64,000 nucleotides of DNA from an uncultured Gammaproteobacteria bacterium. Its GTDB lineage: Bacteria; Patescibacteriota; Patescibacteriia; SG8-24. The stretch spans positions 15,697 through 79,696 of the forward strand of contig CAZAOV010000001.1 in the NCBI GenBank assembly GCA_964486995.1. The letters run 5' to 3'. Position numbers and translations under genes: made by a program. Positions within the stretch are counted from its first letter, which is position 1; every line of letters starts with the position of its first letter. The notes beneath the pieces were generated by a model. The model was not told the origin of the DNA. It did not search any database and saw only the letters and a program-made list of their open reading frames with translations. Below, piece by piece: positions 11,468-58,485 of the stretch.

Positions 11468-11469
11468 AG

Positions 11470-20858: not shown

Positions 20859-21003
20859 GAGGGCGGAAACACACCTACCGAATCGGGCAGGGGCAAGCCC
20901 TGCGGCTATCATCATGGTAATCGCAATTTGATAATAACACATCCCGCATTGACTGACCGCCGCCAAGCTGATAACTTCATCAAGCAGCAAAACGGAGGAA
21001 AAC

Positions 21004-21477: not shown

Positions 21478-21483
21478 TAACAA

Positions 21484-21510
21484 AACACGGGATTCGCCCG
21501 TGTTTTTTTG
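21484..21510 (+). terminator. Rho-independent terminator
   Basis: acacgggattcgcccgtgt hairpin followed by ttttttt. Confidence 0.6.
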
Positions 21511-21606
21511 TTGGGGGGTGCTCTGTGTGGGTTTCCGGTGCCCCTTTCCAACTTCCTTGGTTAATAAAATGGAAAGAGGCTTCCTTCTTGGCGGAAGGGG
21601 TCACGT

Positions 21607-22503
21607 TCAAAACAACGACACTAAAAATAAATAGACACGACACCCAAACAACGACGCCAGTAGCCGTACCCAGGTCCCGAGCATACGCGGCTGCACCAGA
21701 ATCGAGGACACAAACCGCTGGCGGGCCTGACGCATGCCACCCGCATTGATACAAAAGCTGCCCTCATGTCGATACCGCAGCGCCAGCGCCCGACGATGCG
21801 CGTCGTACAAATCACGCTGCTTAGCAATCGTCCTGTCACCGGCGGCGATGATGTCTTGACCAGAGACGTTCCGGGTCAGGCTGTTCGCACTGCGCTCGAA
21901 AGAAAACAGAAACTCATCGAGTACCGCTCCGCGCGCGACGCGCAAAATCCGAATCCATAAATCCCAATCCTCGGAACAGATCATATTTTCATCAAACGAC
22001 CCCACCTTTTTCAAAACACTTGTCTGCACTGCAGTGCCGGTCAAAAAACACGGGTTAGAAGAAAGATAAACATCCGGATTATTAATATCGGCCGGCATGT
22101 ACTCGTCGAACTGATTGGTAATTTGCCGGTCTTTTCCGTGCCCCCAGCCGCACACCAAACCGACATCAGAATCAACGAACGACGACGCGGCCCGCTCTAA
22201 AAGCGCCGGCTCCAACCGATCGTCCGAATCTAAAAACACGACGAATTCGCCGCGAGACAACACGATTCCTTTGTTGCGCGCACCGGCCGCGCCGTGATTT
22301 TTCGAAAGCGCCAGCACCTGAATGCGTTCGTCGCCTGCCGCACATTCTTTCGCCACCTTCAGAGTTTCGTCGGTGGACGCGTCATCAACGATAATCAGCT
22401 CCCAATCGCCGTCGGTCTGCGCTAATACGCTCTGAACCGCATTCCGCAAACAGTCAGCGCGGTTATAGGCCGGCACAATAATGGAAAATTTTGGGTTGGC
22501 CAT
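21607..22503 (-). CDS. Family 2 glycosyltransferase (GT2)
   Basis: FSIIVPAYNRADCLRNAVQSVLAQTDGDWELIIVDDASTDET...LDSDD. The called ORF extends to 22590, but the extra 29 aa are Pro-rich and are encoded by an intergenic GC hairpin repeat. The start MANPKF at 22503 is preferred. Confidence 0.8.
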   Translation of the reverse strand: MANPKFSIIVPAYNRADCLRNAVQSVLAQTDGDWELIIVDDASTDETLKVAKECAAGDERIQVLALSKNHGAAGARNKGIVLSRGEFVVFLDSDDRLEPALLERAASSFVDSDVGLVCGWGHGKDRQITNQFDEYMPADINNPDVYLSSNPCFLTGTAVQTSVLKKVGSFDENMICSEDWDLWIRILRVARGAVLDEFLFSFERSANSLTRNVSGQDIIAAGDRTIAKQRDLYDAHRRALALRYRHEGSFCINAGGMRQARQRFVSSILVQPRMLGTWVRLLASLFGCRVYLFLVSLF

Positions 22504-22606
22504 GTGTTCTGATTTAGCAGTGGCTGTGGATGTTTTATTTGATGGCGGTAGCTGCGGGGTTTGGCGGCGTGCCTCTAGGGGCAGGGGCAAGCCCTGCGGC
22601 TACGCA

Positions 22607-23590
22607 TTAGGAAAACAATAACCGGTCTGGATTCGGCTGGCCGTCACGGCCATATAAACCAGCCAACCTGAACTCGGCCAAAATTTCGCGACTGCGGCTA
22701 ATCTGTTCGTCGGATAATTCCTGCTGCCACGTCGTTAGCGGCGACCACTTATCTGCCCCGTCAACTACGGTCGTTCTGCTCTTGCTCTGACGCAATCGTT
22801 CCACCGCCTTTGGGTCAATTTTCGCTCGGTCATGACCGATATAATCATAAATCCGACCGAGCTGTTCCAACGGATAACGAACCACATCCTCATAAAACAG
22901 CGCCAGCAACTCATCTGATTTAAACTGCCGCATGAAAACATAGTTCTCAACAGCCCAAAGAACGACCTTGCGATAAAAATCATCGTTCTTGTATTCGGCG
23001 ATGACACGGTCAAACGGCTGCAGCCAATCTTCGACCAGTTCCGGCTGTTCCAGCGTCGCCAATTCCGGTTCGGGCCGAAACCAATCCTTTCGCTTGTATC
23101 GAGACAACGCCACCGCGAGCGGATTACGGACGATGTAAATCAATTTAACGTCAGCCAGCCGATTCATCGCCCAACGTGCCAGCAGCTGCGCGGTGACGTC
23201 TTTGACGAACAAGCCGCGATGCTTGATGAACAAATCGTCATACGCCGATGCGGCCGTTCCCCAGTCCGGCTGACGACCGACCGGCCGGCCGCTGAACACT
23301 CGCTCAAGGAGTTCGGCTAATCTCGGGCTGTCCGCTCCGGGCCGTACATAGTGCTGCCATATCGAACGGTTGGTTTTTGGATTGAACGGTTCGGTAATCT
23401 CACGATACCGACGGTCCCAATTAATGAGCCGCGGCACCCAAGTCGTACCGCTCCGCGCCGACCCGATGAGCCAGACCCGGTCGTGTTTGTAGTTCCCAAG
23501 CGCGTTATTCAGGTGTATCGTGGCCGGCCACAAAACCCGCCGATGGCATTCGGCGAGCGCGCGACCTAGTTTTTGGTGGGAGTACAGCAT
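22607..23590 (-). CDS. PAPS-dependent sulfotransferase (paralog of 1298..2299)
   Basis: WLIGSARSGTTWVPRLINW and IYIVRNPLAVALSRYKRK. The architecture is collinear with the first sulfotransferase. Confidence 0.75.
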   Translation of the reverse strand: MLYSHQKLGRALAECHRRVLWPATIHLNNALGNYKHDRVWLIGSARSGTTWVPRLINWDRRYREITEPFNPKTNRSIWQHYVRPGADSPRLAELLERVFSGRPVGRQPDWGTAASAYDDLFIKHRGLFVKDVTAQLLARWAMNRLADVKLIYIVRNPLAVALSRYKRKDWFRPEPELATLEQPELVEDWLQPFDRVIAEYKNDDFYRKVVLWAVENYVFMRQFKSDELLALFYEDVVRYPLEQLGRIYDYIGHDRAKIDPKAVERLRQSKSRTTVVDGADKWSPLTTWQQELSDEQISRSREILAEFRLAGLYGRDGQPNPDRLLFS

Positions 23591-23863
23591 GGGGGTAGGT
23601 TAATATATGTTTTAAGTAATTACTAGATTATCGACTGATGATGTCCCGGCACCACCGCGCTCGCATAAAAACTGTCAGACTTATTTTAGGAGAGGGGGCG
23701 ATGGGGCGTTAATAAAGCGGTAGCGACAGAGCTTGTCTCTGCCCATGAAGCACTCGCCTGTCTGAACGGGCAGAGGCGAGCTTTGCCGCCTCACAAATCT
23801 AGATTGACAATTAAGATTGGAAATACTAACCTAAACTGCCGCTTATTTTCAAGGAGAGCCGAG

Positions 23864-24358
23864 ATGAAAACCTATCGCGAAATCGTCGAGACTGTAGCCG
23901 CCGCACTGCTTGGTCGCCTGTTGGATCCGCGGAGATATAATGTCGCCACTCCACAGTCCAGCCCGTGCGAACTTCGTCGCATGGGTCCGAATCCGAATCC
24001 GCTTATCGAATGTGAGGACAATGTCGTCCGATTGCTGTGTGCGGTACTGCTGAATCTCTCCGGAGGCGCCGGCTCGTACACGCACTGGAACGCGGTGTCG
24101 TATCGCTGGCTGCGGTATTCGATGCTGACCCTGCTCGGTGATGGCGGCCGTCGCGGTCGCACGCTGCTCGGTGGATTCGTCACCAAGTGCATCAACTTGG
24201 ACGCCCTGCCGCTCGACAAGCCAAGAGACGGCGGGCGTGGCGATTTCCACTGGGCGCTGGGGCAACTATTGGCGCTGCGCGCGGTCGAAATAATTGAGCA
24301 TGAGGGCGAGGACTATATCTGCCCGACGAGTCGTATCTTGCGGTTCGTGGCGGAGTGA
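23864..24358 (+). CDS. Hypothetical protein, first gene of the radical-SAM module
   Basis: RBS aaggagag 6 nt before the ATG (MKTYREIV...). The antisense ORFs 23849..24265 and 23872..24219 are rejected. It ends 19 nt before the next gene. Confidence 0.5.
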   Translation: MKTYREIVETVAAALLGRLLDPRRYNVATPQSSPCELRRMGPNPNPLIECEDNVVRLLCAVLLNLSGGAGSYTHWNAVSYRWLRYSMLTLLGDGGRRGRTLLGGFVTKCINLDALPLDKPRDGGRGDFHWALGQLLALRAVEIIEHEGEDYICPTSRILRFVAE

Positions 24359-24376
24359 TTTTCTGGAGGAGGATTC

Positions 24377-25306
24377 ATGTCTGTACAATGCATGAGCCTG
24401 GTGATCGGCACGCGCAAGTGTAACGCGCGGTGTCCGTTCTGCGTTTCGCAACAGACCGGTTTTGATAAAATCAGTCGCGGTCGCGAACGCAATATCAATT
24501 TCATCAATCTGGAAGAGGCGTGTGTGATGTGCGGGACTGCAAGTCCGCCCACGCTGCTCATGACCGGAAAGGGCGAGCCCACGCTGTACCCGGACGAAAT
24601 TACGCGATATCTGGAGTGGTTTCGGGAGAAGCCGTTTGCGCCCAAAGAGTTGCAGACCAACGCGCTGGCTATTGGCCGGCTGGCCGAGACTGGTCAAAGC
24701 GGCGTCGACGGGCTGGACGAGGAGACTCTTCGGCACTGGCGGTCGCTGCGGCTCGGTGTGGTGGCACTTTCTACGGTTGGGATTCATGACGCGGCCAACG
24801 CGGCGGTGTATCACCCTGATTATCCGTCGCTCGTGGATACCATCGCGTACCTGCGCGGGTTCGGGTTTACAGTTCGGTTGTGTGTGATGATGATGCGCGG
24901 CGAGGGCTGTGTGGCTGATATCGACGGTTTGGAGGAAGTGGTCGAGTTCTGCCGCGCGCATGACGTGGGTCAGCTCACCGCCCGGCCGATTACCGCGGCC
25001 GACAACGGTGGCGAGTCACGAGCCGCACGGTTCGTACGCGAACACGGTGTGTCGCCCGATGCGCCGCGGGAGCTGTACGAAGCGGTCGAAGCGCGCGCCC
25101 AGGCGCTGTATCCCCTGGCGCACGGCGCGATGGTGTTCGACTGGAACGGTCAAAATGTTTGCTTGTCGAACTGCCTGACCTCGGACATGCAGTCCGCCCC
25201 CGGCGACCACCGCTCGCTGATTTTCTTCAGCAACGGCATGATCACCACCAGCTGGGACCACGCCGAGGCCGCTGCACTGCTGCAGGGCGATCCTAATTAC
25301 GGCTAA
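24377..25306 (+). CDS. Radical SAM enzyme of unassigned subfamily
   Basis: RBS ggaggagg. CxxxCxxC at residues 15 to 22 (GTRKCNARCPFCVSQ), then a GGE-like TGKGEPTLY. 309 aa. No SPASM-type C-terminal Cys cluster recognised. Confidence 0.7.
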   Translation: MSVQCMSLVIGTRKCNARCPFCVSQQTGFDKISRGRERNINFINLEEACVMCGTASPPTLLMTGKGEPTLYPDEITRYLEWFREKPFAPKELQTNALAIGRLAETGQSGVDGLDEETLRHWRSLRLGVVALSTVGIHDAANAAVYHPDYPSLVDTIAYLRGFGFTVRLCVMMMRGEGCVADIDGLEEVVEFCRAHDVGQLTARPITAADNGGESRAARFVREHGVSPDAPRELYEAVEARAQALYPLAHGAMVFDWNGQNVCLSNCLTSDMQSAPGDHRSLIFFSNGMITTSWDHAEAAALLQGDPNYG

Positions 25307-25312
25307 TTCTTT

Positions 25313-25344
25313 AATCGTGGCTAATTTCAGCCACGATTTTTTTA
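25313..25344 (+). terminator. Rho-independent terminator
   Basis: atcgtggctaatttcagccacgat hairpin plus ttttttt, directly after the radical SAM stop. Confidence 0.55.
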
Positions 25345-25382
25345 TCCACAAAATAGGTGCCTGGCACCTATTTTGTGGATAA
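25342..25382. repeat. REP-like palindrome, copy 1
   Basis: ttatccacaaaataggtgcc|tggcacctattttgtggataa, a perfect 41-bp palindrome. Related copies at 27004 and 27653. Confidence 0.85.
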
Positions 25383-25428
25383 TTTAATATGACAGGTCGT
25401 TGGTAATGCACATTATAAAGAGGGTGGT

Positions 25429-26580
25429 ATGCAAATAATTTACGCAGCGCGGGACGCGCCAGAAACAATTACCAAGTCCATCTTTCTCGCCGGGCCGAGC
25501 CCACGAAAAGACGGGCAATACAACTGGCGACCGGATGCAATCAAAATCCTGGAGCAGCTGGGTTTTGATGGCACCGTGTTCATTCCGCTACCCGAAGACG
25601 GCGGCTGGCCACATTCGTACGACGAACAGGTCAACTGGGAAACGCGTCATCTGAATATGGCCGATGTGGTGGTGTTCTGGGTGCCGCGCGACCTTACAGA
25701 TCTGCCGGCCTTCACCACGAACGTGGAGTTCGGCATGTGGTACGACACCGGCAAAGCGGTGCTCGGGTACCCGCCGGACGCCAAAAAGATGAAATACCTC
25801 GACCATCACGCGCGTCGTGTCGGCACTCCGGTATGCGATACGCTCGAAATCACGCTACAGACTGCGGTGGACATGCTCGGGGATGGCGCTGCCCGCACAG
25901 ATGGCGAGCGTTTCGTGCCGCTGCACATCTGGCGGACTCCTCAGTTCCAGCAGTGGTACGCCGCGCAGACCACGGCTGGCAACCGACTCGACGGTGCGGA
26001 AGTGGTTTGGTCGTTTCGGCTGCAGCAAACCGGCAACGTTTTATTCTGGGCACTGCACGTGGACGTTCATATCGCCATTGAAAGTCGCAACAAGACTATC
26101 GAAATCGTTTTGTCGCGACCTGACCTGTCGGTCGTGGTGGCATACTACGACGACGAGGACACCGGCGACACCAAGGTGGTGTTGGTGCGCGAGTTCCGTT
26201 CGCCCGCTTCAACTAAGGATGGTTTCGTGCTGGAACTGCCGGGCGGTTCTAGCAAGAATCCAGAAAAAACACCGGCCGAGATAGCCATCGACGAATTCCA
26301 CGAAGAAACCGGCCTGAAGCTCGACCCAAAATATCTGACACCAGTCGAATCGCGCCAGCTTGCCGCTACCTTGTCGGCGCACCGCGCTCACGTGTTCACC
26401 TACCAACTGGACGACGATGAGTACCAGGCGCTACTCGAACAGACCAACCAAACACACGGTGAGTCGGACGATACCGAACTGACTTACCTAGAAATCCATT
26501 CGCTCGACGACATCCTCTACGGAGATGAAATCGAGCTGGACTGGTCCAATCTAGGAATGCTTTATCTGGCGATCGGCTAA
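25429..26580 (+). CDS. Fusion protein: N-terminal nucleoside 2-deoxyribosyltransferase/DNPH1-like (nucleotide N-glycosidase fold) domain plus C-terminal NUDIX hydrolase domain
   Basis: N-terminus: SIFLAGPSPRKDG...ADVVVFWVP...NVEFGMWYDTGKAVLGY (compare DNPH1/Rcl VYFCGSIRGG...ADVVVAEV...GVGYELGRAVALGK). C-terminus: Nudix box ELPGGSSKNPEKTPAEIAIDEFHEETGLKL. Confidence 0.6.
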   Translation: MQIIYAARDAPETITKSIFLAGPSPRKDGQYNWRPDAIKILEQLGFDGTVFIPLPEDGGWPHSYDEQVNWETRHLNMADVVVFWVPRDLTDLPAFTTNVEFGMWYDTGKAVLGYPPDAKKMKYLDHHARRVGTPVCDTLEITLQTAVDMLGDGAARTDGERFVPLHIWRTPQFQQWYAAQTTAGNRLDGAEVVWSFRLQQTGNVLFWALHVDVHIAIESRNKTIEIVLSRPDLSVVVAYYDDEDTGDTKVVLVREFRSPASTKDGFVLELPGGSSKNPEKTPAEIAIDEFHEETGLKLDPKYLTPVESRQLAATLSAHRAHVFTYQLDDDEYQALLEQTNQTHGESDDTELTYLEIHSLDDILYGDEIELDWSNLGMLYLAIG

Positions 26581-46211: not shown

Positions 46212-48200
46212 TTGTCTATGCAAACCAATACCATGCGTCACTCATATCAAATCATTGCGGCTGCAGCAGTAGTCGTGCTTATGTTCTTCTGGATGCCGAA
46301 CGCATATGCGCAGGTACCGGAATTTACCGATGAGCCATTTGACGCAACTGGCCTGTGCGTCGATGAGGGCTATGAAAGATACGAGACGCCCATCGAGTGC
46401 GAAGAGCGGTGCGATAATTGTGTCTTGGACGAAGACCAATGCTGGAGCTGTCAGAGTCAGCCCGAACCGGAAACAACGCCTGGTCTCTGGAAACGGTTCA
46501 CCAACTGGGTCGGCAGTTTTTTCAGCAGGGTCGTACAGTTCATTACCGGCAACGCACCGACCGAAGAACCGGATCCGAACCGTTCTGAACTAAACATTGC
46601 CTGGCGCACGGCTTCTGCGGCAGGCAAGAGCGTGCTCGGCTATCATCGCGGCGAGGGTCGCGGCAATGAAGAAGCCATAAACCAGCAAATCAAAGATGCC
46701 CTTGCTAATGCCGACTCCATACCGGACTTGCTGAAACTGCGCACTATTTTCATGATCTATTGTCAGGACAAGCACAACCAAAATTACAAATCCCAAGCCG
46801 CCTGCATGAATGATTTTATGGATGAATTTCGTAAGCGCGGCGATGTCCTAAAGGAACGGCTGTTGGCACAAATCGATTCCAGTGACGGCAGTGCCAAAAC
46901 GTACAAGAGGATTGTTGGCCTGCGCTCAATCCTAATGGCCGGCACGAACGCGAGCGGCGAGGGGTATTGGTTTTCGACCGACAATATCAAGAAGGTCATG
47001 GAAGCGTTGAAGGGCAAGATGAAGGAGTGGCTACAGGCAGCGCTAGTGCACAACGCTTCGCTCGAGAACATCCATACTTGGTATTACTTTGCCCAAGCTT
47101 ACACTAAGGCTGTCGTAAAGGAAGGCGACTCACCCGGCTCCGGCCTCATGGAAGGGTCTAATCCTTCGTTGTTGGTGCGGTATCGAGCGCGACGACTGGC
47201 CCTGCAAGAAATGATTAAGATCGACATCTGCAATCCCGACCCGGAGAAGCTCAAGAAGTTCCAGGAGCTGTTGAGCCAGCCGCCCGGCTGCAGAAAAATT
47301 CTCGGCAGTACGGTTGCCTGCGCTGATATAATGTCCGGCAAGCTTGAAGCGGCGTACGCTTATCTCTACGACATGGACGAAGGAGACGAAGCCAACGACA
47401 TGCCGCAGAACAAGGCGTCGGAACCGATTAAATGCGATAAGCAAAGCACAACGACCACCGCTGATACTTCCGACGATGAGCCCTTAGCCGTTCCAACCCC
47501 GCCGACCGAGGAGAGCGGTGATGATGTCGGCGCTTACGAGAGAGAGACACAAGCAACTGACTCGGACGGTAACCCGACACAAGGTGACCCACCGCCGGTC
47601 GGCGCCGACACGGAGGAAGGCACCGAACATACCGGGGCGGATTCAGGTGCTGCCTCCGGCAATCCCGAACCCGATTCAACCGAACCGCCCGGCGACACGG
47701 AATCCGACTCGACCCCCGCTTCCGGCGATTCCACCGATTCGACAGATGAACCAACCGAACCAAACGAGACCGATGACCCGACAGTCGAGCCGAACGGTAC
47801 GGGCACGCCTGACCCCTGCGAACTGCCTGAAAACCTTGATTCGCCCGAATGCATTACGGCCGGCGAACCGAACCCGGAGGAACCAACCGCGACTCCAGTC
47901 GTTCCGCCAGACCCAGAAGAACCCTACTCCATGTGCGATGTCGTCATAATCTCTGACCCGATCGTCGGCTGGGACTTCTATACCCAAGACTGCAATGCCG
48001 CCCGAGAAGACGTGATATTCGCCTTCACTTCATGTGGCTGGCAACCCCCTCTGGTCGTGGCCGACGATTCCGGCCCGGAAATCATGTGCTACGAAACGGC
48101 CGGCGGATTCATAGATTATCAATCTATAATTCCGTGCCATCCGATCCCCTGGCCAGACGAGCCCGTCGTTCAGTGTGTCGAGGAACACCTGATGATGTAA
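46212..48200 (+). CDS. Secreted Cys-rich protein with a long acidic Pro/Thr/Asp/Glu-rich low-complexity segment
   Basis: Signal peptide (AAVVVLMFFWMPNAYA); Cys clusters at both ends; a DSTEP/DSTD-type low-complexity stretch at 47500..47900. Confidence 0.5.
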   Translation: MSMQTNTMRHSYQIIAAAAVVVLMFFWMPNAYAQVPEFTDEPFDATGLCVDEGYERYETPIECEERCDNCVLDEDQCWSCQSQPEPETTPGLWKRFTNWVGSFFSRVVQFITGNAPTEEPDPNRSELNIAWRTASAAGKSVLGYHRGEGRGNEEAINQQIKDALANADSIPDLLKLRTIFMIYCQDKHNQNYKSQAACMNDFMDEFRKRGDVLKERLLAQIDSSDGSAKTYKRIVGLRSILMAGTNASGEGYWFSTDNIKKVMEALKGKMKEWLQAALVHNASLENIHTWYYFAQAYTKAVVKEGDSPGSGLMEGSNPSLLVRYRARRLALQEMIKIDICNPDPEKLKKFQELLSQPPGCRKILGSTVACADIMSGKLEAAYAYLYDMDEGDEANDMPQNKASEPIKCDKQSTTTTADTSDDEPLAVPTPPTEESGDDVGAYERETQATDSDGNPTQGDPPPVGADTEEGTEHTGADSGAASGNPEPDSTEPPGDTESDSTPASGDSTDSTDEPTEPNETDDPTVEPNGTGTPDPCELPENLDSPECITAGEPNPEEPTATPVVPPDPEEPYSMCDVVIISDPIVGWDFYTQDCNAAREDVIFAFTSCGWQPPLVVADDSGPEIMCYETAGGFIDYQSIIPCHPIPWPDEPVVQCVEEHLMM

Positions 48201-48459: not shown

Positions 48460-49179
48460 TTATTGCGCCAGATAGGACTTTAGCGTATAAATCCAGTCTT
48501 CCTCGCCCTGCGGATCGTCTATCTTTTTCATCAGCAGCCATTCCAGATAACTGCGGTCCTCTTTAAGCACGTCTTCCAGCAGCTTTCCGGCATGTTTGCC
48601 GAAATTGATACGCCGCATCAGCGACGGTCGCTTGGAAATCTCAATCATTTCCTTGTATATATCCGCATCCTTGCCGTACTCGATCCTCATCTTTTCCTCG
48701 AGACGACCAAACAGGCCTTCCAACACATCCACGTCTCCAGCCGCGTCGTGGGCGACCGCCTTGATATCCAACCCCAGATAATATCGCAGGTATTGAAGTG
48801 AATAGCGCGGTATCTTGGCTTCCATATCCAAGTGCCGCACCAGCTTTAAGGTACATATGACGTTCTTGGTCACTATACCCTCGCGCCGCAGCATGTCCGC
48901 GTCGAACGCGGCGTTATGCGCCACTAGCACCGCATCGTCTCTTTCCAACAGCTCACGCAAATTATTAAACATCTCGGAATCCTGAAACGCCGGTTTGTCG
49001 TCCACTATTTTTTGGGTGATGTGGTGAACTGCCATCGCATCAATCGTAATCGGCAACGGTGGCTTGAACAGCTCACACTTCATCTCACCCTCCGTTTTGT
49101 ATGCAACTTGGCACAGCCGATCCTGCGGCTTCACGCCAGTGGTTTCTGTATCTAGAAAAACTAATTTCATAATTATCAA
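48460..49179 (-). CDS. DEDDh 3'-5' exonuclease (DnaQ/RNase T-like) with a C-terminal extension
   Basis: ExoI VFLDTETTG, ExoII VAHNAAFDADML, ExoIII AVAHDAAGDVDVL. Confidence 0.75.
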   Translation of the reverse strand: MIIMKLVFLDTETTGVKPQDRLCQVAYKTEGEMKCELFKPPLPITIDAMAVHHITQKIVDDKPAFQDSEMFNNLRELLERDDAVLVAHNAAFDADMLRREGIVTKNVICTLKLVRHLDMEAKIPRYSLQYLRYYLGLDIKAVAHDAAGDVDVLEGLFGRLEEKMRIEYGKDADIYKEMIEISKRPSLMRRINFGKHAGKLLEDVLKEDRSYLEWLLMKKIDDPQGEEDWIYTLKSYLAQ

Positions 49180-49250: not shown

Positions 49251-52200
49251 TCAGACTCTCACCTCGAACAAACCGTTCGGTACTTTGCCGCCACCGGCAT
49301 CAGTATAGACAAACGGACTGCGCGAGCCCCCACCGCGAAGTGTGACCACATCGCTTAATTTGTCAGAAACAGTCTCATCCTTGGAATGTGCGTTCACGCC
49401 CATTTTTTGCGCTTTTTTCTGCACAAAATTACCCATGGCTTCTTTTATCTTCGGATGCGAATTGCTGCTGTAAACGCGTTCCATAAACAGCGCCGGTTCG
49501 CCAGCGTCGTTTTCCAACATACGCACCACGGCTCGCGCCAAGATGTTCTTGTCCTCATCGTACATTTGAATAATCTTCACGCCCGGGTCGCTCAAATATG
49601 ACATCAACCCGACGTTCATCCCCATGGAACTTTTATAGCTCTGGCATGACGGCACCGGTTTCTCGCCAATCAACGCATGCACTGACACATCAACCTCGTC
49701 GGTCAAGATCAGCTTGGACTTAGAAATCCGTTCACCGCCAAACATGCTTTGATGCGCATTATGCAACAAATGTTCGATGCGTTCCAAATCCTGCGCAAAG
49801 TCAGGATTCTCGTCGTCGAATACGTCATGCATATCGCGGAAAACAACATCGAGCGGCAGGCGTTTCTTTTTGTCGTCAAACGCCAGTGATTTTGTTTCCA
49901 CGCCCTCCAGAGAGATGCGTCGCAACCTCGCGAGGTAAATCTGCGCCCGAGTTCTCTTGATTTCCGGGTTGTTCCCCGCCAGGTGTTCATTCACTTTTTG
50001 CTGCAATTCGTGGAACTCCGCTTTCTCTTCTTCCGGAACATCTTCGTATTTCAACCCTTTCTTCCTGGCCTTCTTTACGGCTTTGAAACGCGCTTTAAGC
50101 TCCTTTTGTCGCGCGGTCCACTCTTTGATTGGCTCGGTCAGGCGCTCGTATTTGGCTTTTAGAACTTCGTCATCGGGCGGAATTTCGTTCACATCAATAT
50201 GATGATCGGCCATCGCCTGAGACAGAATGTCGCGCACGCTGCTATGAACATCCTTGATGTCATAGCCGAGTGCCTCATCAAAACCAGCTTCATCATGTTC
50301 GAGCCAGGCACGATACTGTTCGGCCGACAGCTCGGTCGGCAACAACCCTTCTTGCCTGAGCCGATTCAATCGGCCCTCAGCCTGCTGTTCGTTCTCCGGC
50401 GATCCGCCCTCGCCCCACGCCCGCCAATCCTCATAGTCACCGGCCACCACATGTTCAATGAACTGCCTGAACGCATCTTCCATGTCGGCCCGTTTCCGAC
50501 AGGTTTGCCGATAATAAATCGACAATGCCGCAATCGCCTCACCGGTCAGGCCCTCAAACCGCACCTCGTTCTCCGACTTCAGCTCGAAAATATTCTGCAT
50601 GTGTTCGCTGATACGACCCATGAGTTTGTCGCGCAACTCTGACCAATCACCCTGCGCCAAATCATATTCTAAACCTTCATCCAGCTGATTATGCGCCACA
50701 AACTCCAGCATCTCTACCGCCTCCTTGCGCTGAGCCGATGACAAAGCAAATATCGCCGGAGCATTATCCTTAGCAAGCGGCATGACATCTAATATCGCCA
50801 CGCGATTCATCATATCCATGAATTGCTCGGGCGGATAAGCCTCTGACGGTTTCAACTGCTTGCCCTTTCGCTGCTGCTGAACCTTGGCAATGACCTCCAG
50901 CTCTTTGCGGTGCAGTTCATAGAACGCTTTACCCGATGCTATTTCCAGCATGGCATCATAATAGTCCTGTTCCAGCTCATCGGCCTGCTCGATGTGGTGA
51001 TAGGGATTTATTTCCGCCAGCTTATTTGTCACCTCGGCCGACAAATTAAGTTTGTGATAATACTGCCCGTATCGATTACCGGAAAACGCCACGCTCCGCG
51101 CTCTGGCCAAATAAAGTTTTTCTAATTCCTCATCTGGAACTTGTTCTCTGATATCCCTAAATTCCCGACTGGTATCAGTGAGCACCGCCGGATTCACCAC
51201 CGCATATTCAGCGATGTTCTCGCGCATCAAATCCTGCATTTCTAAATCATCCATGCCGGCGACACCTGCCTCGAAGACATAAAATTTATTCGCCTGACTC
51301 TCTTCGGTTATGGAATCACGCACCTCGTCAATCCATCGCAGACGTTTGCGCTCATGCTGCTCGGACAGCGACTCCTCGAGGCGCTCTTTTTTAATATCAT
51401 CAATTTTCTGCAGTGCCGCGCGCAAGTCATCCCGTAGTGTCTTTTTTTCGCTCATGGATACCAACTTGCTTTTCAGGCGGTCACGCAAGTATCTCACATT
51501 CTGCTCCTGTCTTTTTAGCCCCTCCTGCCACCATTCGAGGTGATTCTTGAAATCACTTTCCACCCCATGCAACTGCCTTAGCAGCTTTCCGTAGTAACGA
51601 GTTTGACCAGTTTCCGCCAGCCGTTCCATGAACTGCCGTCGCAGTCCAGGCAGCGCAATCATCTCTCTCATTATGCTTTCACTATCTAAAAAATCTTCGA
51701 TATCGACAGACCGAATTCGCTCTAACATGAGTCCGATGGTTTCTCGAGCTCCGATTAGCTCAATAACGGCTCTCAGTTTGTAAGCCAGGTCTGTTGCCGC
51801 CTCGAAAGCGCCGGGCTGTTCCAGCAAGACTCGTTTTATTTGTTCCTGATAGGGTTTAGCCGCTTCGCTCCCGATGAAATACTCAATAAAATTTAAATCA
51901 ACGGGAATCGTCAGCTGCCGCTCAAAAAAATCTTCTCGCTCCTGTTTGCTGTACACCTTTTTGAATGCCAAGCTGCCAAACAGGTGAGGCGACGCCTCGA
52001 TTGTCCGCCTAGCGGTGACCTGCAGGGTGTCACTGCTGATATCGAAAGTTTCACCGGATTTTTCTTTCTGACGCAGTTGCTTTGTCAGGCGCGGATAGTG
52101 TTCAAGAAAATATGACGCGTCTTTTTGCATTTCCTCAACCAGCCGGTCAGCCGGAACAATATCGTGTTGAAGCGCATATTCGATGTTATACATCCATAGC

Positions 52201-53528
52201 GCCGGCTGATGCTTGGTGATTTGCCGCACCAGCCACTGCTGTTTGTCCGGCGACAGCACCGGCAACACCGAATCAATCTCCAGAATCAATTCACGTGCCA
52301 AATACGAACTCTGGCCCTCTTCAATTATGTGTCGGATGTGATGATCCAGAACTAGCTTTTCTAAATCAGGCGCGCCCTTGCGCTGGCGATTGAATTCGGC
52401 GATGCGTTGCAAATCCGTAAACCGATTCGAATTTAAGTAGCAACCTGAATTTCGATACAACTTTTTCATTAGTTCGGCTGCCTGTTGCTTGTCTGCACAC
52501 AACTCATCGATGTGATTCATCACCGGCACGCCGGATTCCACCATCTCGATGAACAGATCATCCTTATCGTTGAGATAATTTTCGTATAATTTGTAATTCT
52601 TCAGTATCGCCTCGGCGCGACGTTCGTTAGCGATATCTTTAAGTTTAGCCAGTCTTCGTGCCAGTGAGCGGCTGGCAACGGCGGATTGGTGTACCCATCT
52701 CACGTCGTCTTTTTTTACCCCCTCTCGCCTGACCAGCTCGTCCATCACGTCTTTTTCTTCGGCCTGATCTTCGTCGGTCAGAAAAAATTCGCCCCGAGAA
52801 TAAACCAGCCCATGGGAACTGGTCTGCCCAAGCATTTTTTCTAACATCTTGTCGGTAACCAAATCCGCTTCCTGCAATTTATCTAAATATTGCAGTACCA
52901 CGGTCGGCATGGTTTCTAGCGTTGCGATCATCAGCTCTTTCGCGTCATGGGCTTCGGGGTGCTGCCGACTGTATTCGGTCATTACGTCAATCAACTCTTC
53001 TATACGGTCGTAACTGTTAAAGTGCGCTTCGCGCAGGGAATGGCTTTCTTCCTTGCCGTTCACTTCGACGGAAACGTGATGCTGATGCAGGTTGGTAAAC
53101 GGCACCACCATGAGCGCATGCTCGGAATCATTTTCGCGAAACTCCTGCAAAAAATCTTTTCGAACCGCAATCGGAATATCATACCAGCACTCATGAAAAG
53201 TACGCACTGCTGTGCCCGGTTCTATGAGCCGACCGAGGTAAACGCCCAGATCAGCCTTCTGCTCCAAATTCATCGCCCTGACCTTGTCGAGCAGTTCCTC
53301 ATCCCCGACCATGTTTTTGGCCAGCAGACCTTCAACGATCTGCAGCTGCTGACTCTCGTCGAACTGGTCGAACGAATTCTCGAACAGATCAAAAAGCGCG
53401 GCCATATCCTGCTCGGATGCCTGCCGCACGTCTAGCGCTCCGCCTTCACTTAACCTAGCCCAAACCTCCTGAGAGTCGGGCTTCCTGTCTATTTTATGCT
53501 CTGGTTTGTAGCCGCCTTCTCCTAGCAT
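49251..53528 (-). CDS. Giant (1425 aa) acidic, predicted mostly alpha-helical protein of unknown function
   Basis: An uninterrupted 4.3 kb ORF. No catalytic motif, TM helix or signal peptide recognised. Co-directional with, and 71 bp upstream of, the exonuclease gene. Confidence 0.6.
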   Translation of the reverse strand: MLGEGGYKPEHKIDRKPDSQEVWARLSEGGALDVRQASEQDMAALFDLFENSFDQFDESQQLQIVEGLLAKNMVGDEELLDKVRAMNLEQKADLGVYLGRLIEPGTAVRTFHECWYDIPIAVRKDFLQEFRENDSEHALMVVPFTNLHQHHVSVEVNGKEESHSLREAHFNSYDRIEELIDVMTEYSRQHPEAHDAKELMIATLETMPTVVLQYLDKLQEADLVTDKMLEKMLGQTSSHGLVYSRGEFFLTDEDQAEEKDVMDELVRREGVKKDDVRWVHQSAVASRSLARRLAKLKDIANERRAEAILKNYKLYENYLNDKDDLFIEMVESGVPVMNHIDELCADKQQAAELMKKLYRNSGCYLNSNRFTDLQRIAEFNRQRKGAPDLEKLVLDHHIRHIIEEGQSSYLARELILEIDSVLPVLSPDKQQWLVRQITKHQPALWMYNIEYALQHDIVPADRLVEEMQKDASYFLEHYPRLTKQLRQKEKSGETFDISSDTLQVTARRTIEASPHLFGSLAFKKVYSKQEREDFFERQLTIPVDLNFIEYFIGSEAAKPYQEQIKRVLLEQPGAFEAATDLAYKLRAVIELIGARETIGLMLERIRSVDIEDFLDSESIMREMIALPGLRRQFMERLAETGQTRYYGKLLRQLHGVESDFKNHLEWWQEGLKRQEQNVRYLRDRLKSKLVSMSEKKTLRDDLRAALQKIDDIKKERLEESLSEQHERKRLRWIDEVRDSITEESQANKFYVFEAGVAGMDDLEMQDLMRENIAEYAVVNPAVLTDTSREFRDIREQVPDEELEKLYLARARSVAFSGNRYGQYYHKLNLSAEVTNKLAEINPYHHIEQADELEQDYYDAMLEIASGKAFYELHRKELEVIAKVQQQRKGKQLKPSEAYPPEQFMDMMNRVAILDVMPLAKDNAPAIFALSSAQRKEAVEMLEFVAHNQLDEGLEYDLAQGDWSELRDKLMGRISEHMQNIFELKSENEVRFEGLTGEAIAALSIYYRQTCRKRADMEDAFRQFIEHVVAGDYEDWRAWGEGGSPENEQQAEGRLNRLRQEGLLPTELSAEQYRAWLEHDEAGFDEALGYDIKDVHSSVRDILSQAMADHHIDVNEIPPDDEVLKAKYERLTEPIKEWTARQKELKARFKAVKKARKKGLKYEDVPEEEKAEFHELQQKVNEHLAGNNPEIKRTRAQIYLARLRRISLEGVETKSLAFDDKKKRLPLDVVFRDMHDVFDDENPDFAQDLERIEHLLHNAHQSMFGGERISKSKLILTDEVDVSVHALIGEKPVPSCQSYKSSMGMNVGLMSYLSDPGVKIIQMYDEDKNILARAVVRMLENDAGEPALFMERVYSSNSHPKIKEAMGNFVQKKAQKMGVNAHSKDETVSDKLSDVVTLRGGGSRSPFVYTDAGGGKVPNGLFEVRV

Positions 53529-53602
53529 TGCGCAAAAAATCGGTAAATATGCCTTTATTTTAGCACGAAATTGGACCTAAGTAAATCTTACGATATCAAA
53601 AA

Positions 53603-53620
53603 ACCACCCGCGCGGGTGGT
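53603..53620 (-). terminator. Rho-independent terminator for the 53627..53974 gene
   Basis: Perfect palindrome accacccgcgcgggtggt, preceded by an A-run on the plus strand. Confidence 0.5.
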
Positions 53621-53626
53621 TATGTT

Positions 53627-53974
53627 TTATTCGTCGAGCAGACGAATATTCGAGCGAATACCGCGATAGGTGTTCATATACACCATCACCGTGGTGCCAC
53701 GTCCGTCGTAGTAATCAAGATTGTTGTGCCAGCGCTCATCGCACTTAACTACGATGGCGCGGTCGTTGTCGCCCCAGGTTTCGACGACCGTTCCGACGCG
53801 CCAGACATCGCCGCGCGTTCTGACTTCGACCCGCGTGCCTTTGGGAAAAATTTCCCAGCCAGTTTCTAAGGCATCGGTGCCGGGGTCGTCCCAATGCTCC
53901 CGACCGTTGGTCGCTTCGGCTAGCCGGTCGCGGTTGACGCTTTTTTTGACATGAGATGCTCCTTGTTTGCTCAA
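53627..53974 (-). CDS. Small hypothetical protein
   Basis: 115 aa; a possible SH3/Tudor-like beta-rich core (KGTRVEVRTRGDVWRVGTVVETWGD). Confidence 0.4.
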   Translation of the reverse strand: MSKQGASHVKKSVNRDRLAEATNGREHWDDPGTDALETGWEIFPKGTRVEVRTRGDVWRVGTVVETWGDNDRAIVVKCDERWHNNLDYYDGRGTTVMVYMNTYRGIRSNIRLLDE

Positions 53975-54106
53975 TTTCAGTCGCCAGCTGTTCGGAGTTG
54001 TTCAGCGCAACTTAATTTAACGCAAAATACCGATATGCGAAAGCGCGGGGGTGATACACCGGCTGGTGAATCTCGGCAAGGGGCGTAAGCAGGTCAAGGT
54101 GTAAAA

Positions 54107-54165
54107 AACCGTCAGACTTGTTTTAAGGGGGCGCATAGCGTCGCCTTAAAACAAGTCTGACGGTT
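54107..54165. repeat. Intergenic hairpin repeat element (family aaacYgtcagacttRttttaagg), full inverted-repeat copy
   Basis: aaccgtcagacttgttttaagg ... ccttaaaacaagtctgacggtt gives a 22-bp stem. Related copies at 23668..23690 and 40111..40162. Confidence 0.8.
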
Positions 54166-54619
54166 TTAGAAGATTCAGAAAGCTACGCATTAAGTATCTG
54201 GTCACCATCTACCCACCCAGGAACAACCGCCAGGATGTATTCCCGGACGACGAGGATTGCCTTCTCCTTCCGCAACATTTTAGCTTCCACGGCGGACGAG
54301 CGCAATTTCTTTTGCCACGCGGACTGCCTGATAGGCAACCACTAACACCTCGAGGCGGCGGGGACGAGTCAATCTCCGCCGCCGTACTCGAATACACGGG
54401 TACGAGCAGAGCGAGGCGGCTGACCGGCCGGGGCTGCAACATTCCCGAATCGGCCAGATTATCAAAAAGATGGGGGGGGCGTAACGCTAAAGATTAAAGA
54501 CACGGTCCCTAAATACCTAATCCTGTTTTAACATATCAAAAACGTCCGACTCAGCGTCGGACGTTTTTGGCAGGGGCTCGTGGACTATGTTAGAACCCTT
54601 GCGATGGAGGTGTAGGGCA

Positions 54620-54997
54620 TTAGTTTCCCGAAGTACCGTCGATACCGTCGGAACCGTCGCATTGACCGATTTGTGCTGCATGTTCTAGCTCCCTCTCGAG
54701 CTTTCGCGAGTTTCCGTGCTTCAGCATGCCCATATAGGAATTCAGTGCGGGCAAACTCGCACCACCGACAACCGACCTAAGCATCCTTCTTTTCGTTACG
54801 GTGCGCAGCACGCGATGGTCGGGGAAATGCACCCATCCGAGAAAGTCGATACCGGACGACAGCGTCTTGATGCACACCTTGTTCGGATGAAGTTCGAGCC
54901 GAAGATCTTCTCGCAACTTTATTTCAATCACCGGCAGGTGGTAGGTGCAGGTGTACGTGCAGTGGCTCTGGATCCTGTACAATCGTGCGTTCGACAC
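54620..54997 (-). pseudogene. Reverse transcriptase C-terminal fragment (thumb-region homology only): remnant of a retroelement
   Basis: LREDLRLELHPNKVCIKTLSSGIDFLGWVHFPDHRVLRTV matches the RT motif-7/thumb consensus (L..LgL.ln.eKT.i....g.dFLGy.v). No finger/palm motifs (no YxDD) upstream. Has its own RBS aaaggagg plus a GTG start. Confidence 0.45.
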
Positions 54998-55104
54998 TGT
55001 TATCACCTCCTTTCGCTGGGGGTGATTTCAGTTAACTGACCAACTCGCTACGCGTCAAACGCACACACCAGCTAAAGCTGGTGGTTTATTATCTGAATGG
55101 AAAA

Positions 55105-55175: not shown

Positions 55176-55730
55176 TCAAGTGCTGCTTGCTCGAACCGCC
55201 GCCGGGTAGTCCGAGTACCAGTCGTTGTCGAGCCAGTGGTAACTCCAGTCCCACCAGCCGCCGACCCAGTAGAGAGAGCGGACGCACAGAGTGCCGTCAG
55301 GGCGGCGGTAGATGGTACCCCAGAAGTACACCGCCTTACCCTTCCACCCCTCGGGAATGAGGTGCGGATGGACCAGCAGGTGGTCCAGCACGTTGGCGTT
55401 CAGGGCCGGCTCGTCGGCGATGATACTGCGAAGGCCATCACCTTTGACCCAACCGGCCTTCTGCTTCTCGGAAACGAAGAGGTCGATTCCGACCTTTGAA
55501 AGATCGAGGGAGCCGCCCTCGCGATGTTCGACGACCTCCCACCTGTCGGGGCAGAACGGCGCGGCATCGCAGTCGACTAGATGGTTCGAAAGGCAGATCG
55601 ACGCGACCATTCGGTCGATAATCTTAGTATCGGCGAGCATCGCCTCGCCTTGCTCTGGCGTGATTCTCTCCGCGATCTTGCCCATAAGGGCGTTATACTT
55701 ACCAGCTTTCCAGTCAAATAGGTTGGCCAT
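55176..55730 (-). CDS. Hypothetical protein with a Trp/Tyr/Asp-rich C-terminus
   Basis: 184 aa; C-terminal ...LYWVGGWWDWSYHWLDNDWYSDYPAAV; no family recognised. Confidence 0.45.
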   Translation of the reverse strand: MANLFDWKAGKYNALMGKIAERITPEQGEAMLADTKIIDRMVASICLSNHLVDCDAAPFCPDRWEVVEHREGGSLDLSKVGIDLFVSEKQKAGWVKGDGLRSIIADEPALNANVLDHLLVHPHLIPEGWKGKAVYFWGTIYRRPDGTLCVRSLYWVGGWWDWSYHWLDNDWYSDYPAAVRASST

Positions 55731-56022
55731 GGGTTACCCCATCCTTTCCTTGCCGTCGGTTCACGCGCACGGACGACCATCGTCCACAGGCGTTATCCCA
55801 TTGTACAAAACGGCGGTGCGAGGTCGAACGATCAACCACGCACAGCCATTTTCAACATGCACGAATTGGCAGGTACGACACTGAAATATAGCATTTTTTG
55901 CTGTTTTTGTCAACCTCAATACAGATGGACCACAAGTTATGCTTCTGCCGCCTTCAAAACAAAAAATTACTCTACATTAAGCGGAATTTTTTGGCAGGGG
56001 CTCGTGGACTATGCTAGAAACC

Positions 56023-56625
56023 TCAACGCACACTACTGAAGCTTCTATATACTAATTCGGACATCGCCTCGTGTTTGCCAGACATTCCATCAATGCAGGC
56101 CCTTAGGTAGTCTGGTTCGTCCCAATCGACCTCCGGCAGCCCCAAGCTTGCTACCAGCAAATCAAGGAACAGTCGAATCGTTCGTCCGTTCCCTTCACGG
56201 AACGGATGTACTGCATTGAACTCGTTATGTATGAAGGCAATCTTGTTGGCAATTTCCTTCTCACTGTCTTTTTCCGTCGGAAGGCTGCCTTCTAGAGCCT
56301 GACTTAAAGTATCCATTGAATCCCGCAAATGCGCGACCGGCGCAAATAACATGTCGTCTTTAGATATATCGACACGCCGCAATTCACCAGCCCAGTCATA
56401 CAACGGACCCAAAAAATACTCGTGAATAGAAAAAAGTAGCGCAACATTGAATGCCACATTTCCCTGCTGCAGCAGGCCGAAGAAATGCTCGTATGCGTCC
56501 GCCAACAGAATGGTCTCCGCATCCTCCAGCGACTGCTGATCCGTGATGCCAAGCCTGTTTTTCAGCACTCCGTTCACCAGACCTGCATCCTCATCACTGA
56601 CGTTATATCGAGAATGCTCGGCCAT
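56023..56625 (-). CDS. Fic/Doc-family (Fido) protein, putative AMPylating toxin
   Basis: Canonical Fic motif HPFREGNGRTIRLFL (HPFx[DE]GNGR). Confidence 0.8.
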   Translation of the reverse strand: MAEHSRYNVSDEDAGLVNGVLKNRLGITDQQSLEDAETILLADAYEHFFGLLQQGNVAFNVALLFSIHEYFLGPLYDWAGELRRVDISKDDMLFAPVAHLRDSMDTLSQALEGSLPTEKDSEKEIANKIAFIHNEFNAVHPFREGNGRTIRLFLDLLVASLGLPEVDWDEPDYLRACIDGMSGKHEAMSELVYRSFSSVR

Positions 56626-56801: not shown

Positions 56802-57290
56802 TTAGCAACTCCTTATCTTTCGTATAGTTGGCCAAAAAAGGAAGTGGCAATTGCTTTCACTTACATCTAGAAATCTCACCCATTCAACTGACTTAACCTC
56901 TCCGTCAATGACTGATTTTGGCGTACCCTCTTTACCTTCAACAATTTCCACTTGATGCATCATGGCAACGACATGATAAAACCTGTCGTCTTTTTCTATG
57001 TGCAAATATCTTTCTGCTAAATCGTAAAATTCAGATGATTTAACCTTGTATCCAGTCTCCTCTAGAACCTCTCGATGAAGAGCCTCTTTAACGCTTTCGC
57101 CCATATCCATCCCACCACCAGGAAACGCGTACAAACCATGATGGGGCCTGACCATCAAGATTGAGTCATCTCGGATAATCACGGCATAAACCGTCGGTCG
57201 CCAAAAAATTTCTACGTCGGCCGGGATTTCTTTTTCAATCCCTTGATTGTCATCAAAATAATTCATACTCATGCATCCTATCACACCCAA
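56802..57290 (-). CDS. NUDIX hydrolase
   Basis: Nudix box FPGGGMDMGESVKEALHREVLEETG. Confidence 0.75.
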   Translation of the reverse strand: MGVIGCMSMNYFDDNQGIEKEIPADVEIFWRPTVYAVIIRDDSILMVRPHHGLYAFPGGGMDMGESVKEALHREVLEETGYKVKSSEFYDLAERYLHIEKDDRFYHVVAMMHQVEIVEGKEGTPKSVIDGEVKSVEWVRFLDVSESNCHFLFWPTIRKIRSC

Positions 57291-57351: not shown

Positions 57352-57425
57352 TGGCAGGGGCGGCAGGGATCGAACCCGCAATAAAGGTTTTGGAGACCCT
57401 TGTGATACCATTTCACCACGCCCCT
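57352..57425 (-). tRNA. tRNA-Trp (CCA), 3'-CCA encoded
   Basis: Folded manually: acceptor AGGGGCG/CGCCCCT, anticodon loop CTCCAAA, T-loop TTCGATC. Confidence 0.85.
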
Positions 57426-57689
57426 ATGAATTGCGTTTGGATGTTACCTTAGGATTTGGGGTTGTGCAAGGCTATTCGAGCGGCCTATCTGCTGAACTGA
57501 ATCCTTACCGCAATTCGAAGTCCGGGGTCAGTACGACGGGTTGATTGAGTGTCTGGTGCGTTTATGTGGATTTTTGCCTCCGCAGGAATGACATGAGGAG
57601 GACGAGAAAATCAAGCAAGAAGATCGTTGCCGAACAATCAAGCACGTGACGCTTAAACGGCGGTTGCCCGCCGTTTTTTCGCTTGATTG

Positions 57690-57845
57690 CTACTTAGTTT
57701 CCTTGTGCAGCACGTGCTTCTTGCACCACTTGCAAAACTTTTTCATCTCCAAGCGGTCTTTCAGCGTTTTCTTGTTCTTGTGGGAGAAGTAGTTGATGCG
57801 CTTGCATCCAGTACACTCCAACTTCATCAAATTATCTTGAGACAT
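57690..57845 (-). CDS. rpmG: 50S ribosomal protein L33
   Basis: A 51-aa ORF below the ORF-track cutoff ([51 protein letters not shown]). It has the CxxC...CxxC zinc-ribbon pattern of L33 and lies between tRNA-Thr and tRNA-Trp. Confidence 0.8.
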
Positions 57846-57930
57846 ATTCTTTGCTGTTCATTACGGCAACGACCTTAGCCGATTTCCGTCATTTTGTCCA
57901 GTCCCGAGACTAAGCTCGGCGTACTATTTC

Positions 57931-58007
57931 TGGAGCCACCTCGCGGATTCGAACCGCGGACCTACTGTTTACAAAACAGTTGCTCTGACCAGCTGAGCTA
58001 AGGTGGC
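57931..58007 (-). tRNA. tRNA-Thr (TGT), 3'-CCA encoded
   Basis: Manual fold: acceptor GCCACCT/AGGTGGC, anticodon loop TTTGTAA, T-loop TTCGAAT. Confidence 0.85.
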
Positions 58008-58056
58008 GCAATCTTCACGAAGGCTTCGTGGTGACTGGCGACGCCAGCTGAAGCCT

Positions 58057-58141
58057 TGGTGAAGGCTGGTGGGCAGGGCTGGATTCGAACCAGCGAAGGC
58101 GTAGCCAGCAGATTTACAGTCTGCCCCGTTTGACCGCTTCG
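58057..58141 (-). tRNA. tRNA-Tyr (GTA), long variable arm, 3'-CCA encoded
   Basis: Manual fold: acceptor GGGTAGG/CCTGCCC, anticodon loop CTGTAAA, variable arm about 18 nt. Confidence 0.8.
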
Positions 58142-58409
58142 GTACCTACCCGTGATTTTACAATTTGCTTTAAATGACTTTCCGCCCTTGGGCGATTTTA
58201 TCTTCAACTCTCGCTTTCGCACGTCAGTTTTATCTAGATGTTCTTCAGCATATACCAGCGTCCATGGTCGATATGCTTTAGTTGATCTGACACACCCGGA
58301 ATTACGCTATCGCAATCTCTTTTTTAATGTCAGCGGTGTAACCAATATGATACCGACCTCGTGCCTTACTGGATAGTATATAGACAAAATATCGCATAAC
58401 GAATCTAGA

Positions 58410-58485
58410 TGGAGCCGACGATCGGACTTGAACCGATGACCTACTCCTTACCATGGAGTTGCTCTACCAGCTGAGCTACGTCGGC
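58410..58485 (-). tRNA. tRNA-Thr (GGT), 3'-CCA encoded
   Basis: Manual fold: acceptor GCCGACG/CGTCGGC, anticodon loop ATGGTAA, T-loop TTCAAGT. Confidence 0.85.

Follow-up and report, generated by a model that had tools for sequence, protein, structure and literature searches.

In the eukaryotic NatA, NatB, and NatC complexes, a large helical subunit (Naa15, Naa25, or Naa35) carries a small GNAT subunit (Naa10, Naa20, or Naa30). Comparable combinations within a single protein are Pat/YfiQ, which consists of an acyl-CoA-synthetase-like domain and a GNAT domain (CoA, coenzyme A), and TmcA/NAT10, in which a GNAT domain accompanies a helicase. A protein with a possibly related design is encoded on the minus strand, at positions 49251-53528, of the 64,000-nucleotide stretch of DNA analysed here (hereafter, the window), which covers positions 15,697 to 79,696 of contig CAZAOV010000001.1 from GenBank assembly GCA_964486995.1, labelled as an uncultured Gammaproteobacteria bacterium. 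This 1425-residue protein is predicted to consist of a long acidic helical part and a C-terminal module with a GNAT-like fold and, judging from its homologues, belongs to a conserved family that has not been described before and occurs chiefly in Patescibacteria, the candidate phyla radiation (CPR).

The initial annotation had treated this giant protein as an orphan. Indeed, comparisons with Pfam, NCBIfam, PADLOC, PHROGs, and PDB sequences returned nothing meaningful, and a word-indexed search of 5.8 billion proteins, run both with the full protein and with a profile of 30 full-length sequences, recovered only the query itself. However, an exhaustive HMMER search (phmmer) with the C-terminal 1200 residues yielded 681 family representatives (clusters at 50% identity) with E ≤1e-3, including 216 with E ≤1e-10 and 102 with E ≤1e-30, which rules out the orphan reading. 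The apparent orphan status is a limitation of the word-indexed search for this long, charge-rich query. The nearest relative (P0005) shows 41% identity along the full length, many of the phmmer matches are co-linear proteins of 1300-1560 amino acids, and 30 full-length members can be aligned end to end in the same co-linear order. Coverage of the query is bipartite: the N-terminal ~550 and the C-terminal ~600 residues are common to most relatives, and the segment from ~600 to 750 is variable.

A scan of species-representative genomes and metagenomes identified 38 related loci that, together with the window, represent 28 lineages (the giant proteins being <60% identical between lineages). The gene is intact, encoding 1343-1535 amino acids, in every related locus with enough contig sequence. 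The named source records come almost entirely from Patescibacteria, including Saccharibacteria, Sungbacteria, Harrisonbacteria, Uhrbacteria, Falkowbacteria, Parcubacteria, and Paceibacter. Several records titled “uncultured Gammaproteobacteria” (L007, L010, L013, L014, and L016) also carry the full-length family. These labels are probably wrong, because the neighbouring genes in L007, L010, and L016, which include FemAB, RNase Y, PolX, and RuvA, form a gene set of the CPR or Gram-positive type, and the assignment of full-length members to Gammaproteobacteria was therefore dropped. The relatives sit amid housekeeping genes (EF-P, YchF, RuvA, and an aminoacyl-tRNA synthetase), and none was detected on the viral contigs of IMG/VR. 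All database entries for them are unnamed or “hypothetical” and are devoid of Pfam domains. No paper describing the family was found in the literature searched, and no orthologue was found in the transposon sequencing and annotation tables for Saccharibacteria (PMC10633639).

The gene itself is one unbroken open reading frame (ORF) with an ATG start, 1425 codons, and a stop, as had been claimed, and its product fits the earlier picture of a very large, acidic, mainly helical cytoplasmic protein that no sequence library names and whose function may be new. The protein has a pI of 5.2, contains 18.3% Asp plus Glu versus 13.8% Lys plus Arg, and carries a net charge of −65. Walker A and G-x-G-x-x-G motifs were both looked for and neither is present; the protein has no transmembrane helix (the top 19-residue Kyte-Doolittle mean is 1.11) and no signal peptide or other secretion signal, its N-terminus being charged. 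The motif scan and hydropathy thus agree with the initial annotation on all three counts. The GC content of the gene (0.50 overall and 0.58 at third codon positions [GC3]) is similar to that of the adjoining housekeeping genes, i.e., its base composition is native. The gene and the regions of its product are as follows.

49251-53528, minus strand: the giant gene, 1425 codons plus a TGA stop at 49251-49253 (ORF and translation, phmmer, co-linear alignment).
51609-53528, minus strand: residues 1-640, an acidic all-alpha region of ~40 short helices plus a beta-hairpin (151-164), net charge −36.
51291-51602, minus strand: residues 643-746, antiparallel helical hairpin 1, with helices 643-686 and 692-746 (DSSP of the model).
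50175-51281, minus strand: residues 750-1118, an acidic middle helical region, net charge −34 (models, conservation, coverage profile).
49923-50171, minus strand: residues 1120-1202, antiparallel helical hairpin 2, with two ~37-residue helices (AlphaFold 2 model).
49734-49922, minus strand: residues 1203-1265, a connector of two short strands and two helices that links hairpin 2 to the C-terminal domain.
49254-49733, minus strand: residues 1266-1425, the C-terminal alpha/beta domain with the GNAT-like fold, the most conserved part of the protein.

The initial annotation had seen no recognisable domains. This holds for sequence methods but fails at the level of the fold, where the last ~160 residues form a GNAT-like alpha/beta domain. 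Residues 1000-1425 were modelled by AlphaFold 2 with a mean predicted local distance difference test (pLDDT) score of 95.2 and a predicted template modelling (pTM) score of 0.89, and the order of elements in this model (b1-a1-a2-b2-b3-b4-a3-b5...b6-b7) agrees with the GNAT topology. In a fold search, the module matched solved GNAT structures, with which it shares the core fold; the nearest of these are NatD/Naa40 (4u9w), insect AANAT (4fd7), HAT1 (2p0w), and AAC aminoglycoside acetyltransferases. The mean pairwise identity within the family is 49% in this module versus 14-33% in the other regions. Eight residues, G1288, C1295, Q1296, L1308, R1332, R1336, E1350, and Y1353, are invariant in 33 sequences that include very divergent members, and all of these except G1288 and L1308 have polar or reactive side chains. 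D1277, P1291, S1294, Y1311, D1314, K1372, S1402, R1403, Y1408, D1410, and G1414, the last of which belongs to a GGG motif at 1412-1414, are nearly invariant.

The remaining 1265 residues are best described, according to the models, as an acidic all-alpha solenoid-like scaffold. The model of residues 1-1010 (pLDDT 88.2, pTM 0.80), taken together with that of the C-terminal part, bears out the earlier statement that the protein is mostly helical: ~89% of it consists of a helical scaffold with two long projecting hairpins. Hairpin 1 is the most variable region of the family in both sequence and length (mean pairwise identity of 13.6%, 44-116 residues among the members) and is about neutral in charge. 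The middle region is well conserved from about residue 1021, with the motifs Y..WR.WG and LLP..L..QYE.W. Hairpin 2 (helices H121-157 and H167-203 in model meca843a74b98, in which the residue number equals the model number plus 999) has a pLDDT of ~98, and the connector that follows it shows 30.6% mean pairwise identity. All 30 full-length members are acidic, with net charges from −13 to −80, and the charge is located on the helical regions. A role for the hairpins as basic RNA- or tRNA-binding arms was considered and rejected, as the hairpin regions, which look basic in the window protein, are on average about neutral across 30 members (means of +2.8 and −0.2). Self-BLAST detected no internal sequence repeats in the scaffold, and no tetratricopeptide or other repeat was matched in Pfam. 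In Foldseek searches, the scaffold resembles, weakly, only large alpha-solenoid scaffolds, Naa15 of NatA among them; the matches to Naa15 (6c95_A, 4xpd_A, and 4xnh_A; E values of 1.5e-2 to 3.2e-2, TM scores of 0.11-0.21) are not significant and no better than those to CRM1, CAND1, or mTOR. The remote homology to a well-known family that the initial annotation had named as a possible outcome was found for the last 160 residues, in the form of the GNAT fold, but the other 1265 residues have no specific match and structure searches revealed no known relatives of them.

The C-terminal module also occurs outside this architecture. The C-terminal ~400 residues are found in a subfamily of 1100-1300 amino acids that shares nothing else with the giant proteins, and a word-indexed search with a domain-only profile returned 23 short unnamed matches. 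The module is further present, without the patescibacterial scaffold, in environmental Chlamydiota. One Waddliaceae contig carries two copies, at 2544-6285 of L017 and 919-4237 of L042, in which the module resides in ORFs of ~290-340 amino acids, each preceded by an ORF of ~830 amino acids (the two overlap in L042). The two ~830-residue ORFs are paralogues that share 25% identity and are unrelated to the patescibacterial scaffold; the arrangement could represent either a conserved two-gene layout or a recurrent frameshift. One more copy of the module adjoins a gene for a Legionella-type outer membrane protein. Because the module is found in Chlamydiota with an unrelated partner as well as in the shorter subfamily, it can be regarded as a portable unit. 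A lone copy of 142 amino acids at positions 6001-6429 of L040 is 51% identical to the module of the window protein, has FCQ in place of SCQ, and is not preceded by a homologous scaffold; it is either a stand-alone version or the remnant of a decayed giant gene. Translation of this fragmented-looking copy with genetic code 25 (UGA = Gly) was tried and discarded, as the stops persist and homology is limited to the last ~150 residues.

Conservation (49%), reactive invariant residues, and portability all point to the GNAT-like module as the probable working end of the protein. The reading put forward here, tentatively but as one with a substantial chance of being right, is that the module is an acyl transferase acting on a macromolecular amine, with the acidic scaffold positioning the substrate. 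The acyl group, probably acetyl from acetyl-CoA, would pass to an amine of this macromolecule (probably either a basic protein or the N-terminus of a protein), which the acidic scaffold would capture and position, by analogy with the way Naa15, Naa25, and Naa35 serve their GNAT subunits. E1350, on strand beta4, and Y1353 are candidates for the general base and acid, and the acceptor or donor site may be formed by the C1295-Q1296 pair of the alpha1-alpha2 loop and the beta3 residues R1332 and R1336; alternatively, C1295 could carry an acyl-thioester intermediate.

Several observations weigh against this proposal. Curated GNAT models (Pfam Acetyltransf_*) match no member, even at E ≤10, among the window protein, 30 full-length members, 7 members of the shorter subfamily, and 10 isolated C-terminal domains, and no GNAT was among the PDB sequences recovered by profile search. 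The pyrophosphate-binding motif A (Q/R-x-x-G-x-G/A) is absent between beta4 and alpha3; as placed by predicted secondary structure, the family consensus after beta4 is L-F-x-E-R-V-Y-S-x-N-x-H-x-K-I, in which the loop (Y-S-x-N-x-H-x-K) is shorter and contains no Gly. Helix alpha4, which in canonical GNATs helps hold CoA (the motif B region), is also absent and its place is taken by a variable loop of lower confidence: DSSP assigns no helix between strands 1379-1382 and 1396-1400, where the pLDDT is the lowest of the model (80-85) and the alignment is rich in indels. That the invariant residues would cluster around a cofactor channel is deduced from the modelled topology, the Foldseek likeness of the scaffold to Naa15 is non-significant (E value of 1.5e-2, TM score of ~0.2), and the 28 lineages contain no conserved neighbour that would hint at a pathway. 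Since motif A, alpha4, and matches to sequence models are all missing, the module is referred to as GNAT-like, a divergent version of the fold according to its model, and not as a member of the GNAT family.

The same observations could be turned into an argument for a pseudo-enzyme or pure scaffold, in which a GNAT-like domain without acyl transfer would bind a ligand or a protein and help organise these small cells. The missing motif A and alpha4 and the lack of a GNAT profile match at any threshold would fit such a role, as would the predominance of a helical scaffold with long projecting hairpins whose sole Foldseek likenesses are to scaffold proteins. This role appears unlikely, though not negligibly so, given that conservation is much the highest in the module, which has been kept while the scaffold was swapped in Chlamydiota, and that a set of invariant Cys, Gln, two Arg, Glu, and Tyr residues usually marks a catalytic or small-ligand site and not a protein-protein surface. 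Aminoacyl-tRNA transferases, too, are GNAT-like in fold and have no motif A. Accordingly, the loss of the CoA pyrophosphate loop and of alpha4, the invariant Cys-Gln pair, and the two invariant Arg residues, which could bind a phosphate or carboxylate, are all compatible with an enzyme of the GNAT fold that works without acyl-CoA, be it an aminoacyl-tRNA-dependent transferase of the FemABX, L/F-transferase, ATE1, or MprF type or a Cys-dependent hydrolase or transferase; an enzyme of this kind is considered rather improbable. A further possibility, suggested by the initial annotation, builds on the downstream gene, which is listed here with the predicted transcription signals upstream of the giant gene.

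48460-49179, minus strand: a DEDDh (ExoX/DnaQ-like) 3'-5' exonuclease of 236-239 amino acids (Pfam RNase_T, 9.2e-17; ExoX-like_C, 2.1e-8).
53557-53585, minus strand: a promoter-like site, TTTACT-17 nt-TAAAAT with an upstream TG, 28 nt 5' of the ATG of the giant gene (consensus scan).
53602-53621, minus strand: a strong terminator-like hairpin with an 8-bp stem and a T-run, which ends the upstream small ORF.

The presence of a DnaQ-like exonuclease downstream on the same strand is not in doubt. The encoded enzyme is complete, with the Exo motifs DTETTG, HNAAFD, and HDAAGD, and scores below the equivalog cutoffs of both the exodeoxyribonuclease X and the epsilon-like models of NCBIfam. The gap between the genes is 71 nt to the first TTG and 80 nt to the ATG at 49170, and the product translated from this ATG matches a database entry exactly. 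The junction of the giant gene and the exonuclease gene is no assembly artefact, as the sequence from the 3' end of the giant gene through the exonuclease recurs, with 100% identity over 1893 bp, in a contig assembled from another, independent run. This proximity, on the same strand with no convincing terminator in between, would agree with a nucleic-acid, defence, or effector system made up of the giant protein and a co-transcribed exonuclease, as would the match of the neighbour to a PADLOC DEDDh model (DEDDh domains are accessory in some defence systems) and the degraded mobile-looking region upstream, with its fragment resembling a reverse transcriptase, Fic and NUDIX genes, and tRNA cluster. 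Such a system is nevertheless highly improbable. A DEDDh exonuclease was found next to the giant gene at none of the 38 related loci from 27 other lineages (tblastn and a scan for the Exo I motif), all-against-all clustering of neighbours at 39 loci and the window revealed no family present in more than 3 of the 28 lineages, and in about a third of the loci the downstream gene lies on the opposite strand. Because the linkage is not conserved, the earlier suggestion of a nucleic-acid-related activity loses its support. The giant protein is acidic and has no nucleic-acid-binding domain and no secretion signal. A defence role fares no better: the giant protein matches no known defence (PADLOC) or phage (PHROGs) family and has no relatives on viral contigs, its base composition is native, and its relatives are found amid housekeeping genes. 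Judging from this genomic comparison, the exonuclease gene lies next to the giant gene by chance, and its product is not a functional partner.

Co-transcription of the two genes, also claimed by the initial annotation, is unconfirmed though possible. The gap between them contains no significant hairpin (z = 0.22) and holds TGcTATATT, which is similar to an extended −10 element. Read-through into the exonuclease gene may occur. In view of the survey of genomic contexts, such read-through, even if real, would have no functional implication. A promoter-like site of its own precedes the giant gene, which the hairpin at 53602-53621 is predicted to insulate from upstream transcription.

The small ORF upstream of the giant gene (53627-53974, minus strand; 115 amino acids) has TTG as its sole possible start. 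A strong AAGGAG Shine-Dalgarno sequence and an ATG (53951) lie one base out of frame with it, before an A7 run, and one more A would fuse the two; either a homopolymer error or frameshift or a genuine TTG start could be involved. Its sole match is a weak one to Agenet/Tudor-like domains (E value of 0.024). An intergenic inverted repeat of 30 nt located 5' of this ORF (54105-54167; 93% complementary, 3-nt loop) far exceeds an ordinary terminator stem. Still further upstream, a 128-residue ORF at 54620-55006 (minus strand) resembles the C-terminal part of a reverse transcriptase (LHPNKVCIKTLSSGIDFLGWVHFPDHRVLR) and has no Pfam match; it is probably a degraded retroelement (with a reverse transcriptase of the group II intron, retron, or diversity-generating retroelement type). 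A link between this fragment and the C-terminus of the giant gene through a diversity-generating or other retroelement was rejected, as no repeat connects them. A 42-nt direct repeat (54558-54599 and 55982-56023, 90% identical) is located just 3' of the stop codons of the reverse transcriptase-like fragment and of the Fic gene and flanks ~1.4 kb of DNA with a high-GC ORF of 184 amino acids (55176-55730; GC 0.60, GC3 0.76); this repeat may be a gene end or terminator that was duplicated, or it may mark the edge of what remains of a mobile element. A Fic/DOC-family gene (56023-56625) and a NUDIX gene (56802-57290; GC 0.42 and GC3 0.40 versus ~0.50 and 0.60 in its neighbours), both on the minus strand, directly follow tRNA-Trp, which closes a Thr-Tyr-Thr-Trp tRNA cluster (57352-58485). 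The segment 56023-57425 resembles a short piece of foreign DNA inserted at a tRNA locus.

On the other side of the giant gene, a 662-residue ORF (46212-48200, plus strand) is convergent with the exonuclease gene and has no family match. Its product combines a hydrophobic signal or anchor at the N-terminus with Cys-rich segments and an extended acidic low-complexity region rich in Pro, Thr, Asp, and Glu; it has no relation to the giant family and is probably secreted or located on the cell surface. The GC content of the window is uneven, with 0.35 at 10-12 kb and 0.59 at 24-26 kb as the extremes of a contrast between the regions 8001-12000 and 20001-26000; the low-GC stretch contains a run of same-strand genes of ~270-410 amino acids.

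The most far-reaching interpretation, which is distinctly unlikely, is that the family represents a new enzyme class widespread in Patescibacteria, in which a giant scaffold would be joined in one polypeptide to a stripped-down GNAT fold that has lost the CoA loop and alpha4 but keeps an invariant Cys-Gln pair, and acyl or other groups would be transferred by non-canonical, possibly thioester-based chemistry to a protein substrate held by the acidic solenoid. If true, this would be a bacterial counterpart of the eukaryotic Nat complexes, possibly one that is core to the unusual cell biology of ultra-small symbionts. Patescibacteria comprise a large share of bacterial diversity and have tiny genomes, yet they devote 4.3 kb to this gene. 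Should the protein prove to have acyltransferase activity and thus to combine enzyme and scaffold in one chain, it would widen the range of the GNAT fold and suggest a protein-modification system centred on this phylum. Interest is tempered by the fact that uncharacterised CPR proteins are common and nothing yet shows unusual chemistry. With the exonuclease linkage removed as a misleading lead, C1295, Q1296, R1332, R1336, E1350, and Y1353 in the 160-residue module offer a concrete handle on this piece of microbial dark matter.

Among known systems, an SMC- or Rad50-like identity, which the initial annotation had given as an example, was ruled out: an ABC-type ATPase head, Walker A and B motifs, and a hinge are all missing from the giant protein, its hairpin arms comprise 37-55 residues versus hundreds in SMC arms, and the structure-search matches to SMC/Rad50-like coiled coils align the hairpin only. 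The core fold of the module is common to the GNAT superfamily (“Acyl-CoA N-acyltransferases (Nat)” in ECOD/SCOP), from which the module differs in the absence of sequence-profile membership, motif A, and alpha4, in its own invariant S-C-Q, R-x3-R, and VYTDAGGG motifs, and in its fusion to a 1265-residue helical scaffold. Pat/YfiQ and TmcA are likewise large bacterial proteins, in which a far bigger non-catalytic or regulatory part directs a GNAT domain that is C-terminal or embedded; unlike them, the giant protein contains no NDP-forming acyl-CoA synthetase-like domain, helicase, Walker A motif, or any Pfam match, and its N-terminal part is all-helical. The comparison with NatA, NatB, and NatC is an analogy of design only, in which a large helical scaffold would carry a small GNAT-type unit, except that here both parts belong to one polypeptide.

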